DNA from: Candidatus Woesearchaeota archaeon
Lineage (GTDB): Archaea; Nanobdellota; Nanobdellia; Woesearchaeales; JACPBV01
DNA: 64,000 nucleotides
Assembly: GCA_016180135.1 (NCBI GenBank)
Contig: JACPBV010000004.1
Coordinates: 26,868-90,867 of the forward strand
Direction of reading: 5' to 3'
Part shown: positions 15,691 through 32,861 of the stretch, one piece after another
Position numbering within the stretch: the first letter of the stretch is position 1
How the letters are laid out: every line of letters begins with the position of its first letter
Translations under genes and position numbers: made by a program
Notes under the pieces: generated by a model
Databases searched by the model: none
The model's input: the letters and a program-made list of their open reading frames with translations, nothing else
Told to the model about the DNA's origin: nothing

Positions 15691-15864
15691 GTATGTATTA
15701 AGCTCCGGCAAGAGCGGCTCTGCCATCCTAAGGTCAAAACTCAACTATCAAACTAAATCGCGCTCGTCGTGGGGGGATGCCCCCTCGGGGACACAGAGCC
15801 CTTGCCAAATCAATTGGGAGTTTTGAAGAGGGCAGAGCCGCTCCAAGGGGAGCTTAATACATAC
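15691..15864. mobile_element. family-B long-hairpin MITE-like element, copy B1 (174 nt)
   Basis: The 16-bp terminal inverted repeat is gtatgtattaagctcc / ggagcttaatacatac. Inner perfect stems are gagcggctctgcc/ggcagagccgctc (13 bp) and tcaaaactc/gagttttga (9 bp). The GC-rich core is ggggggatgccccctcggggacacagagcc. The flanking 8-mers match only imperfectly (atcctctg vs cttctgca). Confidence 0.7.
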
Positions 15865-15937
15865 CTTCTGCAGGCCTCCCCGAATTAAGTTCAGATATAC
15901 AATAAACCCGCCTCAAATCTCTATCTCACCCAAACGC

Positions 15938-21234: not shown

Positions 21235-22224
21235 CTATTCAAACCCCTTCCCGCCCTTCTGAAAAAAGTCCCAATACCACTGCACGGTCTTCTTCACGCC
21301 TTCCTTCCACCCGACAGCAGGCCTGTAGCCAAGAAGCTTCCTGGCCTTAGAAATGTCAGGGCATCTTCTCGAAACGCTTCCTGAAGGCGCTTTTTCAGAT
21401 GAATATCTCCCTTTAAACCCGACAACTGAGCCGATAAACCTCACAAGTTCATCGACGGTAATCTCCTCTTCAGCCCCGATATGGAATATCTCCCCGTCTC
21501 CCTTGCTGCTCTCCATCGCCAGGACAGTTCCCTGCACCGCATCATCCACATAGCAGAAGCTTCTCGTCTGCTCTCCGCCGATGATCGAAAAAGGATTTTC
21601 CTTCTCATAAAACCTTTTCACCACCTGGGGGATCACATGCTTGAACCCCATCCTTTCGCCGTAGACATTGTGGTATCTGGCCACAACAGGAATAAACCCA
21701 TACGTTTTTGCATAGGCAAACAATCCTGACTCTCCGAGCATCTTTGTGGCAGCATAGGTAAACCTTGGATGCCTGATGTCAGCGATGCACAGCGGCACTT
21801 CCTCATCCGTCGGCACTTTATAGCCAAACTTCTCGACGCTGCCGGCATAGCATTCGCTTGTTGACGAAAAAATCACTTTCCTGCATTGAGCAGTTTTCAG
21901 CCATTCCAGCAGGTTTACCATCAGCAGGGTATTGATCCTGATGATCTCAGCAGGCATCTTCTCCGTATAGCCGACGCCGACCACTGCAGCAAGCATATAT
22001 ACGCAGTCATAATGTTCGCCCAGCTTGGAAAATGCTTTTGCGTCGGTGCAGTCTGCCTTGACAATCTTCACCCCTCCCTTCTCCAGCGCCTTCAGCTCAT
22101 CATCCATCTTCCCCCTGAAGAAATTGTCAATGATCGTGACTGCATACCCTTTCTGCCCAGAAAGATGCTTCGCAAGGCGGTGGCCGATAAAACCAGCTCC
22201 GCCGATGATCAGTGCTTTTTTCAT
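21235..22224 (-). CDS. NAD-dependent nucleotide-sugar epimerase/dehydratase (SDR family)
   Basis: ALIIGGAGFIGHRLAKHL and YAATKMLGE (YxxxK) are present. A 4-nt overlap links it to the upstream dehydrogenase gene. Confidence 0.85.
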   Translation of the reverse strand: MKKALIIGGAGFIGHRLAKHLSGQKGYAVTIIDNFFRGKMDDELKALEKGGVKIVKADCTDAKAFSKLGEHYDCVYMLAAVVGVGYTEKMPAEIIRINTLLMVNLLEWLKTAQCRKVIFSSTSECYAGSVEKFGYKVPTDEEVPLCIADIRHPRFTYAATKMLGESGLFAYAKTYGFIPVVARYHNVYGERMGFKHVIPQVVKRFYEKENPFSIIGGEQTRSFCYVDDAVQGTVLAMESSKGDGEIFHIGAEEEITVDELVRFIGSVVGFKGRYSSEKAPSGSVSRRCPDISKARKLLGYRPAVGWKEGVKKTVQWYWDFFQKGGKGFE

Positions 22225-23693
22225 ATGTCCCCCCTCCCGATGACCTTGATACTATGCTTAGCCTTAAACAATGCAATGGTTCCCTTATCGAGTATTCCGA
22301 CGGAATCGACGATGATGCACCTCTTCATCCCCATGATGCTTTCCTGCAGCGCCTTGTTATTCCTATAGCCCTTGTGGTTTGTGCAGAAGATGATGATGTC
22401 AAAAACTCCCTCAACAGGGATGCGCTGCTCAACCTTAACGTTCTTCTCTGGCCAGGTGGTAAGATAAGGGTCCTGCAATGAAATGGTGCACCCCTCCTTT
22501 TTCAGAAGGTCATAAAGCATTCCGACAGGAGTGCTTCTTGTATCGCCGACTTCGCTCCGGTAGGATACTCCGTAAAGAAGGGCTTTTTTCCCTTTGAGAT
22601 TTCCCTGCGCCAGCCTCTTTGCAGCATCGAACGTATGTTTAGGCATCATATCATTGATGGCAACTGCATGCTCGCTTTCTCCCAGCCCTGCTTTGCTCCC
22701 AAAAATATTTTTTTTCGACCAGCTTGCCATCAAAGGGTCTTTGGTGAGGCAATACCCTCCAACACCTAATCCCGGCAGCATGATGTTCCTGTGCGTCGGC
22801 CTTTTCCTGATGGCATCAACAACAGCATACAGGTCAACCCCTGCTTCCTCGGCAAACTCTGTCCATTCCTCGATAAACGCAATGTTCATCGCCCGGAAGG
22901 AATTTTCCAGCACTTTTGCCATCTCAGATGCGGTGGTGGAATGCAGCCGAGTCAGCGGAAACTGGTCTGTCCTGACAATTGTCTTGAGAAATTTTTCAGT
23001 TTCCTGAGCGCTCCCCTCATCGATGCCGGCATACACCCTGTAAAAATTTTGTATAGAATCGATGTATTCAGGCCCTGGCATGACTCTCTCAAAAGAATGC
23101 CCGAGAAAATATTTAGAGATCCCCCTTTCCTGGAATGCTTTGTCCAGAATGGGCTTGACAATCTTCTCGCATGCCCCGGGAGGGACAGTTGTCTCAATCA
23201 GAACCAACACCCCTTCCTTCGCAGACTTCCCGATCGCCACGATAGCTTTCCTGAACCCGCTAAGGTCAACGTCAAACGATTTTCCTTTCTTCGGGTTCTT
23301 CTGGACGTCGAGATTGATGTCCACGATAATCACATCAGCAAGGGAATAAGCATGCGGGTCGCATGTTGCGGTGAAATTTTTCTTCTTTCTTGCCACCTCG
23401 TAAAACTCCAGAACTTTCGGGTCTTCGGCCTTAACCGGAAACTGCCCTTCATTCAGTGCCATGACTTTCCAGTATGATTCAGGAGCAGCAAGATCAACGC
23501 CGATGACCGCATAATCTCCCCGGTAAGCGTTGGCAGCAGCCATCGCCATTGCAGCTCCGACAAATCCAAGTCCCTGGACTGCGATAACCTTTTTCCCGGC
23601 ATTGCCGGAGATAAACTTATCAAGAGCCTTCCGGTCATCTATTGTTTCGGGGATACCATAGCTTCTGCCTGAGTTGGGGTCTTTTGATTCCAT
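22221..23693 (-). CDS. nucleotide-sugar 6-dehydrogenase (UDP-glucose/GDP-mannose dehydrogenase family, WecC/Cap5O-like)
   Basis: VIAVQGLGFVGAAMAMA is the N-terminal Rossmann motif. The catalytic region is GVGGYCLTKDP. Confidence 0.85.
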   Translation of the reverse strand: MESKDPNSGRSYGIPETIDDRKALDKFISGNAGKKVIAVQGLGFVGAAMAMAAANAYRGDYAVIGVDLAAPESYWKVMALNEGQFPVKAEDPKVLEFYEVARKKKNFTATCDPHAYSLADVIIVDINLDVQKNPKKGKSFDVDLSGFRKAIVAIGKSAKEGVLVLIETTVPPGACEKIVKPILDKAFQERGISKYFLGHSFERVMPGPEYIDSIQNFYRVYAGIDEGSAQETEKFLKTIVRTDQFPLTRLHSTTASEMAKVLENSFRAMNIAFIEEWTEFAEEAGVDLYAVVDAIRKRPTHRNIMLPGLGVGGYCLTKDPLMASWSKKNIFGSKAGLGESEHAVAINDMMPKHTFDAAKRLAQGNLKGKKALLYGVSYRSEVGDTRSTPVGMLYDLLKKEGCTISLQDPYLTTWPEKNVKVEQRIPVEGVFDIIIFCTNHKGYRNNKALQESIMGMKRCIIVDSVGILDKGTIALFKAKHSIKVIGRGDI

Positions 23694-23763
23694 ATTGATT
23701 CCACGGGAATAACTTGCTGATGAAGAAAATCACTTAACTCTATTTAAACCATTCGCAAAATCA

Positions 23764-23930
23764 GCGGCTCCGTTCAAAATATAGGTTAGCAGCCTAAAGT
23801 AAAAATCATTTGCCCTCTGAATCCAGCTGACAAGGGGGACGCCCCCAACGGGGAATGTCAGCAACTGAAAAATCACTTTGGGATTTTTAAGCTGCTAACC
23901 CGAGCGAAGCGAGATTTTGAACGGAGCCGC
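23764..23930. mobile_element. family-C long-hairpin MITE-like element (167 nt)
   Basis: Terminal inverted repeat gcggctccgttcaaaat / attttgaacggagccgc (17 bp). Inner stems are ggttagcagc/gctgctaacc and gctgaca/tgtcagc. The core is agggggacgcccccaacgggg. An 11-bp direct repeat gcaaaatcagc sits at 23755-23765 and 23929-23939. Confidence 0.7.
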
Positions 23931-23934
23931 AAAA

Positions 23935-24525
23935 TCAGCCTTTCTCCGCCCTCACAACATTCGTTATTGGATCAGCTTTCCTGTCTTCATATATCCTAAA
24001 CCCGGCATGGGCAAGCAGTCTGTGCAGCCCGTTTCTTGAAAACAGCCGTATCCTCACCCCATGGCTCAGGTGGAATGCTTTATACAGAAAGCCGGCCGGG
24101 CTTGTTCGTGGATAGATACAGACAAAAACTCCCCCTCTCTTCAAAGATTCATAGATATTCTGCGCTCCTTGTTCAGGATGCCTCATGAATTCCAATGCCC
24201 CTGCGCAAAGCGCTTTATCAAACACCCCTTTTGGCCGCTCCAGCTCGATGTTGCAGACTTCAGCTGCAATCCCAAGCTTCCTTGTTTCCAGGACCATCTT
24301 GGGAGCGATGTCAATCCCGAAGGGAACCCCATGAGCTTCCCTGATCAGGGCACCGTAATGCCCGCTGCCGCACCCGACGTCGAGGACAGATTCGTTGGCC
24401 TTCACTGCCAAAAGCTCAAGGGCAATCTCCTGCTCTTTCTTAACAAGCTTCCCGATGAAGCCAGTCCCTCCCCGCTCACCGGCATACACCGATGCCTTCC
24501 TGTCAAAATACTCGCCTGCTTTCAT
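23935..24525 (-). CDS. class I SAM-dependent methyltransferase
   Basis: VLDVGCGSGHYGALI...GIDIAPKMV is motif I with post-I. Confidence 0.75.
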   Translation of the reverse strand: MKAGEYFDRKASVYAGERGGTGFIGKLVKKEQEIALELLAVKANESVLDVGCGSGHYGALIREAHGVPFGIDIAPKMVLETRKLGIAAEVCNIELERPKGVFDKALCAGALEFMRHPEQGAQNIYESLKRGGVFVCIYPRTSPAGFLYKAFHLSHGVRIRLFSRNGLHRLLAHAGFRIYEDRKADPITNVVRAEKG

Positions 24526-32627: not shown

Positions 32628-32791
32628 GTATTTGTTTAGCATCCTAAGATCGAAACGCTTCTGGGCTTACCGTTGGGTCCGTCGCGGGGGCCGCCCTCCT
32701 TCCCGAAGGGACAGGAACGTTTTTCCACCCCTACGGGGACGCAGGACATCCATATCTCCCGTCGAGCGTTTCGAAGATGCTAAACAAATAC
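32628..32791. mobile_element. family-F long-hairpin MITE-like element (164 nt), related to family B
   Basis: 16-bp perfect inverted repeat gtatttgtttagcatc / gatgctaaacaaatac. Perfect 8-bp flanking duplication gtttcttc (32620-32627, 32792-32799). The core is cacccctacggggacgcagg. Confidence 0.8.
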
Positions 32792-32861
32792 GTTTCTTCA
32801 GGAAAATCAGGAATTTCCCCTCAAAACAAAAAGCCCCAAACCCCCCAATCCGAAAAAAGAA

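Follow-up and report, generated by a model that had tools for sequence, protein, structure and literature searches.

A hairpin-forming, noncoding sequence separates a dehydrogenase gene from a methyltransferase gene in the genome of an uncultivated groundwater archaeon, and the same 11 bp stand on both sides of it. The locus raises two questions: whether the hairpin is a mobile element that inserted there and, if so, what determined the position at which it came to rest. The source genome is a 1.51-Mb Woesearchaeota MAG of 44 contigs and 88% completeness, and the window, i.e., the whole stretch of 64,000 nucleotides that was analysed, corresponds to C44:26868-90867 of the source assembly. The best explanation of the locus as a whole, which is very probably correct, is that the hairpin is a MITE moved by an IS5-type element and inserted at the edge of a promoter.

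Anatomy of the element and of its insertion site

The element occupies positions 23766-23928 of the window (163 bp), with boundaries taken from approximately 45 genomic blastn matches and the family alignment; full-length matches start and stop at exactly these bases. It spans GGCTCCGTTCAAAAT...ATTTTGAACGGAGCC, which form a perfect 15-nt terminal inverted repeat, comprising a left ('L') end on the plus strand at 23766-23780 (GGCTCCGTTCAAAAT, then ATAGGTTAGC) and a right ('R') end on the minus strand at 23914-23928, where it reads GGCTCCGTTCAAAATCTC. A sequence-only reading of the locus had described this repeat as a 17-mer: the perfect 15-mer is real, whereas the outer GC is borrowed by chance from each copy of the flanking duplication. 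In a repeat search of the window, the outer inverted repeat extended to 27 nt at 85% complementarity, and the terminal-repeat word has many more sites than shuffles predicted. The nested inner stems noticed in the same reading were recovered within an internal foldback (23784-23900, repeat search), which consists of a 15-nt stem (23784-23798 with 23886-23900, 93% complementary) and a 7-nt stem (GCTGACA/TGTCAGC, 23826-23832 with 23856-23862), the arms of the latter enclosing a G/C core (23833-23855). The element folds strongly both as DNA (-36.6 kcal/mol, z -5.5 vs shuffles) and as RNA (-65.7 kcal/mol, z -5.8 vs shuffles). No ORF lies inside the 163 bp, and an Rfam scan of this locus and of four other copies returned nothing relevant. 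Runs of T5 are present on both strands of the element.

The flanking 11-mer, GCAAAATCAGC, is located at 23755-23765 and 23929-23939, as first noticed. The longest direct repeat returned by the repeat search measures 12 nt (CGCAAAATCAGC, 23754-23765 and 23928-23939), but the additional C on the right belongs to the element, as its final base, and the true duplication is therefore 11 nt long. Its right copy holds the last codons and, as had also been observed, the stop codon (TCA on the plus strand, 23935-23937) of a class I SAM-dependent methyltransferase gene encoded on the minus strand (23935-24525; ORF list; Pfam Methyltransf_23/11/12). On the other side, the insertion adjoins the promoter of a minus-strand gene of the UDP-glucose/GDP-mannose dehydrogenase family (22221-23693; Pfam PF03721, PF00984, and PF03720). 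The TATA box of this gene (TTTAAATA on the minus strand) is located at 23741-23748 and is separated from the left copy of the duplication by a 6-nt minus-strand spacer (23749-23754, GAATGG), which takes the BRE position of the dehydrogenase promoter; the 11 duplicated bases therefore directly precede its BRE/TATA. The dehydrogenase ATG lies 47 nt past the TATA box, compared with the typical 22 nt, which indicates a gene with a leader. The insertion leaves both the methyltransferase stop codon and the dehydrogenase promoter preserved.

Dispersed copies and their duplications

Searching the genome with blastn yielded about 45 matches to the element, distributed over some 30 loci on at least 20 contigs, and for 20 copies a single contig contains both ends. 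Of these paired copies, nine are 162-164 bp long and the rest range from 194 to 459 bp, the longer variants having a G/C core enlarged by modules of approximately 31 nt. A duplication of 9-12 bp, different in sequence each time, flanks 17 of the 20 paired copies (9 bp in seven, 10 bp in five, 11 bp in four, and 12 bp in one), with one mismatch in five of the 17; the remaining three copies have no clean duplication. Since 17 of the 20 copies carry different duplications, the 11-mer at the locus is a target-site duplication, neither part of the element nor a coincidence. The sequence-only reading had proposed an insertion directly 3' of a coding region and a comparison with the flanks of other copies, where a general lack of duplications would have spoken against it; the unrelated duplications found there lend the insertion support. 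Its statement that the duplication is longer than those of the MITE families B and F of this genome also holds, both being 8 bp compared with 11 bp here.

The element is shorter than 600 bp and noncoding, carries terminal inverted repeats, is flanked by duplications of unrelated sequence, occurs in dispersed copies, and has an autonomous partner with the same termini. It is therefore a MITE, i.e., a small non-autonomous transposon, belonging to an undescribed Woesearchaeota family (here 'family C'). In four metagenomes, the k-mer depth of the element was 30-130 times that of its flanks. The uninterrupted junction with a single GCAAAATCAGC, which had been suggested as a further check in relatives, was found neither there nor in metagenomes: the joined flanks had no match in a DNA search of the 13 other genomes of the family, five related genomes contained no dehydrogenase ortholog, the joined form was absent from the Logan contigs of four groundwater runs, and the junction pattern was absent from JGI metagenomes. 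As these searches revealed neither an empty site nor a polymorphic insertion, it is from the anatomy that we infer mobility.

A related insertion sequence

Seven contig ends of the assembly break off 81-99 nt within sequences that open with the MITE terminal repeat. Four belong to 'type A' (GGCTCCGTTCAAAAAGTCATCC...) and three to 'type B' (GGCTCCGTTCAAAATCTCATAAGAATTAAATACC...); the outermost 14 nt of type A and 18 nt of type B are those of the MITE as well. At the locus, the first 14 nt of the L end are the same as in the insertion-sequence ends at contig ends, and 18 nt of the R end are the same as in the transposase-start ('B') end found at the ends of contigs C31, C32, and C16. The type B end has an ATG at nt 83 from the terminus, and the reverse complement of the type A end translates to VSSVKFSAQRAEMYCRAIAHNL, identical in 13 of 22 positions to residues 240-261 of a transposase from a related genome, G004. 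With their two types, the seven contig ends represent both termini of a repetitive insertion sequence at which the assembly broke; its internal part is absent from the MAG.

A complete element of 900 bp was found in G004 (Candidatus Woesearchaeota archaeon NC_groundwater_436), which belongs to another genus of the same family, with near-identical end types, a 10-bp duplication, and an ORF of 278 aa. This ORF matched NCBIfam NF033579 (IS5_2) with an E value of 2e-32 and 112.8 bits, below the curated cut-off of 140, and Pfam DDE_Tnp_1 with 19.2 bits, below the cut-off of 23; PF01609 is precomputed for many of the homologues of the transposase, and the Y(2)R(3)E(6)K signature can be read in the ORF as Y-WE-R-NCS-E-YNNSSL-K. 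A tblastn search against plasmids returned 147 records, all archaeal and annotated as 'IS5 family' or 'IS5-like element ISHvo2/ISHma10', with identities of 28-30% over 93-99% of the query. Membership of the IS903 group was considered and rejected, these plasmid relatives being exclusively archaeal with no IS903-type match at E<1e-3.

The transposase family comprised 249 matches, mostly on metagenome contigs of approximately 1 kb and with NCBI names that include Woesearchaeota, and 36 of the 301 genomes sampled from the order contained it. Complete relatives in related genomes measure about 0.9 kb and encode one DDE transposase of approximately 275-290 aa. None of the 120 homologues listed has MKNEA at its start or the A-end peptide at its C-terminus, the transposase is also absent from the congeneric genome G001, and the pattern of the insertion-sequence ends was absent from JGI metagenomes and, among species genomes, occurred only in G004. 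The putative partner of the MITE is thus best described as a divergent IS5-family insertion sequence, linked to it through its two ends and its relatives.

Position of the insertions relative to promoters

A TATA box was scored as the octamer TTTAWATA or its complement, with at most one mismatch, ending 14-18 nt from one terminus of the element. Such an octamer was present in 17 of the 20 paired copies, and in 19 of them when two mismatches were allowed; the strict definition applies to 5.4% of intergenic background positions (binomial p ~2e-19 for 17/20). Genome-wide, TATA boxes show a sharp peak at 22 nt from start codons, and the promoter matrix of the genome, consisting of AAA (-35 to -33), NN, TTTAWAWA (-30 to -23), 22 nt, and T/ATG, reads as a BRE and TATA box followed by a leaderless start.

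The insertion sites share one layout, in which an ATG pointing away from the element is followed, towards the element, by the TATA box, a 6-nt spacer containing the BRE AAA, the duplication, and the element itself. In 8 of the 17 copies, exactly 22 nt separate the ATG from the TATA box, and in 3 more the distance is 23-26 nt; among the 15 copies whose duplication is clear, 14 have a 6-nt spacer between it and the TATA box. A check that is independent of TATA box calling is to measure from the ATG to the near edge of the duplication: this distance is 36 nt in eight copies, the duplications of which are 9, 9, 9, 10, 11, 11, 11, and 12 nt long. Because the duplications vary in length at this constant distance, it is the promoter-side joint that is fixed and the far joint that varies. 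Conservation is limited to one side of the target. The opposite arrangement, with the element placed between a TATA box and its gene, was rejected, the away-pointing ATG lying 22 nt past the TATA box and the BRE AAA being on the element side.

Elements occur in both orientations relative to the promoter, with approximately 18 L ends and 9 R ends facing it. Among the unpaired ends, i.e., single MITE ends and insertion-sequence ends, 12 of 19 are TATA-adjacent, and in nine of these 12 the ATG lies 21-25 nt beyond the TATA box. The rule is also obeyed in long noncoding regions (C18:35486 and C12:14555; gaps of 129-551 nt). Beside insertions without a nearby ORF, no tRNA or ncRNA was found with Rfam, ARAGORN being uninformative with zero tRNAs genome-wide. 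At the locus, it is the promoter of the next gene, more than the end of the preceding one, that defines where the element sits.

Other genomes and other element families

The MITE is present in the congeneric genome G001 (78-85% identity) and in G004, G009, G012, and G013. A TATA box was located at 14-17 nt in 17 of the 20 copies fetched from these five genomes, where target-site duplications also flank MITE copies. Autonomous elements follow the same arrangement. At L040, the ATG of an aS21 gene is followed by 22 nt, TTTATAAA, ggttac, a 9-bp duplication, and the insertion sequence; L043 reads in the reverse order, with a 9-bp duplication, aaaaag, TATTTAAA, 22 nt, and ATG; and L045 shows GTCGGTTAC, gaaacg, and TTTATAAA. 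L041 and L042 fit the rule as well, and L044 does so approximately. More distant relatives, at 30-40% identity and with other termini (GGCTCTGTAGAAA, GGCTCTGTCCTGAAT, and GGGTTTGTCCCAAG), mostly display a 9-bp duplication, 6 nt, and a TATA box.

When 41 sites were aligned without gaps, with the outer edge of the duplication as anchor, the consensus was C/RAAANN/TWTWTAWA, and about half of them had an ATG 22 nt past the TATA box. The first TATA position was T in all 41 sites, the third BRE position was A in 39 of 41 (vs 72% genome-wide), and the last duplicated base was C in 25 of 41. An orthologous promoter has been taken twice, in G000 (C31:13360) by the B end of the insertion sequence and in G001 by a MITE inserted 1 nt further, and there are metagenome contigs in which nothing but the 10-nt target GTGCTCAAGG (site C25:99) lies between two element ends. 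The shared promoter and these tandem ends indicate repeated use of the same spot.

The offset recurs in family B MITEs, which have unrelated termini (GTATGTATTAAGCTCC) and an 8-bp duplication: their TATA peak lies at 14 nt, equal to 6+8, and it is always the 'GGCAAG' end that faces the TATA box. An IS66 transposase (PF03050), sought as the partner of family B, was not found in this genome. Family F MITEs of the same genome, also with an 8-bp duplication, exhibit no TATA association. The positional rule is a property of the transposon clade and not of this genome alone.

Discussion

The mechanism that would account for these observations involves mobilisation of the MITE in trans by an IS5-family insertion sequence of approximately 0.9 kb with the same 14-18-nt termini. 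Integration would proceed through a staggered cut, repaired into the 9-12-bp duplication (11 bp at the locus). The choice of target is not random: one strand-transfer point lies at a constant 6 bp upstream of the TATA box, where the BRE begins (approximately -37 in leaderless genes), and the other cut falls 9-12 bp further upstream. Elements therefore land behind the upstream gene and in front of a core promoter, that of the next gene, which stays intact. Since two families with different termini and a different stagger share the 6-bp offset, a landmark set by the host is favoured, and our preferred candidate, to which we assign an even chance, is promoter DNA bound or bent by TBP/TFB. The fuller proposal holds that the Woesearchaeota IS5-type clade uses TBP/TFB on BRE/TATA as its landmark, that the unrelated MITE family with the 8-bp duplication does so independently, and that both insert at the first accessible bp upstream of the BRE; in this complete form it is plausible but falls somewhat short of an even bet.

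The termini of IS903 start with GGC, as do those described here. This member of the IS5 family prefers the target WTTYA-N9-TRAAW, in which RAA adjoins the 9-bp duplication (PMC2577343, table 1); an A-rich flank, RAAA, likewise stands directly outside the duplication in the present sites. The likeness gives substance to the idea that the transposase itself reads the sequence or shape of BRE and TATA box, through a one-sided and extended IS903-like preference that involves no host protein, and so do target sites that, at the third BRE position, come closer to the consensus than the average promoter does, the C/G bias at the joint, and a transposase with no domain beyond those of haloarchaeal relatives that are similar in length. 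However, the target here is conserved on one side only and includes the TATA box, which lies 7-14 bp outside the duplication and hence beyond the 5-bp flanks of the IS903 motif (PMC2577343, table 1), and the identical 6-nt offset of family B, with its other termini and 8-bp duplication, is more easily explained by a host landmark. Direct reading by the transposase is accordingly a serious candidate, albeit a rather doubtful one.

The remaining readings dispense with targeting or with transposition altogether. In a compact genome that is approximately 87% coding, near-random integration followed by purifying selection could leave insertions only where they do little harm, and at the locus merely some 6 nt are free between stop codon and BRE. 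Around seven positions would have been equally harmless there, yet the one at the BRE edge was used, and selection would have to produce single-nucleotide precision even in long intergenic regions, the departure from the intergenic background given above, and independent use of the same promoter in two species, although family F MITEs survive elsewhere in the genome with no link to a TATA box; we regard this origin of the fixed position as very improbable. It is still harder to credit that the element is a structured RNA gene of the host or a regulatory or terminator hairpin, with the 11-mer belonging to it or arising by coincidence. The strong folding and the T5 runs on both strands are what such a hairpin might show, but every copy sits in a different duplication, the termini are those of a transposase-bearing insertion sequence, copies face both ways, and Rfam contains no match.

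In terms of known systems, the closest analogue is the bacterial TnGBS and ISLre2/ISKra4 elements, which have Mutator-like DDE transposases and integrate 15-17 bp ahead of the -35 box of sigma-A promoters (PMC3942029). In both cases, a constant short distance separates the insertion from the first promoter element downstream of it, the promoter is left intact, and the behaviour is a property of a transposase clade. The present elements work alike but are not members of that group: their transposase is IS5-type and not Mutator-like (p-MULT 3/4), the promoters concerned are archaeal BRE/TATA and not sigma-A promoters, and insertion takes place in both orientations instead of one. A eukaryotic parallel is offered by Ty3 and the Dictyostelium element TRE5-A, for which the Pol III factor TFIIIB, composed of TBP and Brf1, acts as the guide (PMC5911963, PMC5006619, PMC5391098). 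Position-specific integration at the edge of a TBP-containing complex, providing a 'safe haven' in a gene-dense genome, is the common feature; those elements are, however, retroelements that rely on an integrase or on target-primed reverse transcription, and the protein tether proven for them is a hypothesis here. If TBP/TFB is indeed the landmark, the Woesearchaeota elements would represent the archaeal DNA-transposon counterpart of TFIIIB-guided Ty3/TRE5-A integration and, in uncultivated DPANN archaea, would be natural markers that locate promoters to the single nucleotide.

Among named elements, the haloarchaeal IS5-like ISHvo2 and ISHma10 are the closest relatives. They likewise measure approximately 0.9-1.1 kb, and the one protein encoded is a DDE transposase of about 275 aa that bears the Y(2)R(3)E(6)K signature. 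Their termini read GGCTCTGTTGAAATCC vs GGCTCCGTTCAAAATC here, and they differ from the present clade in that identity is only approximately 29% and the transposase described here does not reach the cut-offs of NCBIfam and Pfam. Two complete haloarchaeal copies were examined, one of ISHma10, with an 8-bp duplication, and one of a related, unnamed IS5-family element in Haloferax gibbonsii; neither had a TATA box at the fixed offset. Among archaea, MITEs are listed for Sulfolobus, Halobacterium, and Haloquadratum (PMC10969869). Prokaryotic MITEs resemble the family described here in being small, noncoding, multicopy, and intergenic, with insertion-sequence termini, duplications, and a strong foldback, and the element type itself is ordinary, selfish DNA of a known kind. 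What sets this family apart is the variable 9-12-bp duplication, the modular and expandable core, and the nucleotide-exact position relative to promoters.

For promoter-adjacent, position-specific integration, no archaeal precedent was found in the searchable literature, the only hint being ISH6, which targets an AT-rich motif (PMC3942029). Within that literature, the single-nucleotide promoter-edge targeting by this IS5-type clade is new for archaea. The rule that links target, the 6 bp RAAANN, and TATA box is base-exact, is kept across an order of DPANN archaea, and is common to elements with different termini and stagger. Targeting the promoter edge may explain how mobile DNA persists in genomes of 1-2 Mb without killing the host, and it raises the testable question of whether the transposase docks on the TBP/TFB complex. 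For organisms without transcriptomes, the insertions amount to a free annotation of promoters. A regulatory effect is also conceivable, as each insertion shifts regulator sites located upstream of the BRE to a distance of approximately 170 bp or more from the promoter.

Promoter layout and the family B and F elements

Promoters of the source Woesearchaeota genome have a very regular layout genome-wide, consisting of AAA at positions -35 to -33, TTTAWAWA at -30 to -23, exactly 22 nt and then T directly followed by ATG, as exemplified by the region at window positions 23693-23748; most genes therefore appear leaderless. Family B MITEs of this genome have different termini (TIR GTATGTATTAAGCTCC in the copy at window 15711-15884) and an 8-bp duplication. 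Across this copy and 55 other family B ends in the genome, the distance from the TATA box to the end of the element peaks at 14 nt (6 + 8), and it is always the 'GGCAAG' end that faces the TATA box. For family F (window about 32648-32811), a link to the TATA box was absent in this genome.

Modular core and differing ends of the family C MITE

The core of the family C MITE is modular, with units inserted or amplified between the arms: a unit of about 31 nt (e.g., CCGCCCTCCGTTGCGAAGCAACCGGAACGCTGGATTATCCC) and, likewise, other hairpin cassettes, giving variants of 194-459 bp, among them contig C16:4894-5352, C44:103829-104252, C23:47950-48270 and C22:22862-23132. The C44 copy, 424 bp long, lacks a duplication, and on either side of it a TATA box lies at the canonical offset; this points to recombination between two copies.

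In copies from different genera (loci L096-L111; related genomes G013, G012, G009 and G004), a scaffold of about 165 nt is retained with 72-79% identity, and the terminal repeats vary (GGCTGTGTTGAAAAT, GGCTCTGTAGAAAAT and GGCTCTGTCCTGAAT), matching variants of insertion-sequence terminal repeats found elsewhere in the order. This pattern suggests that the ends have been swapped or are co-evolving with the mobilising transposase.

Insertion-sequence ends and individual insertion sites

The IS5-type insertion sequence with MITE-like termini breaks the source assembly 81-99 nt inside its ends, at C1:29829, C11:88, C25:99 and C43:99 for type A and at C31:13360, C32:49540 and C16:33114 for type B, the transposase-start end. 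At least four copies are present; the interior is absent from the bin. At C16:33096-33131, a full B end is directly preceded by an 18-nt terminal-repeat fragment.

One orthologous promoter (…GGCTGTTTAAATAGTTTGTGTTTTTTTCT…) carries an insertion-sequence B end in the source genome (C31:13300-13458) and, 1 nt further away, a MITE L end in the congeneric genome G001 (C172; L095), a different species; the two insertions arose independently at a single site.

At C29:18127-18289, the reconstructed empty site has a single TATA box with an ATG 22 nt away on either side, belonging to ORFs of 219 and 88 aa; this TATA box may be shared and bidirectional, and the MITE now stands between it and the 88-aa ORF, provided that this ORF is real.
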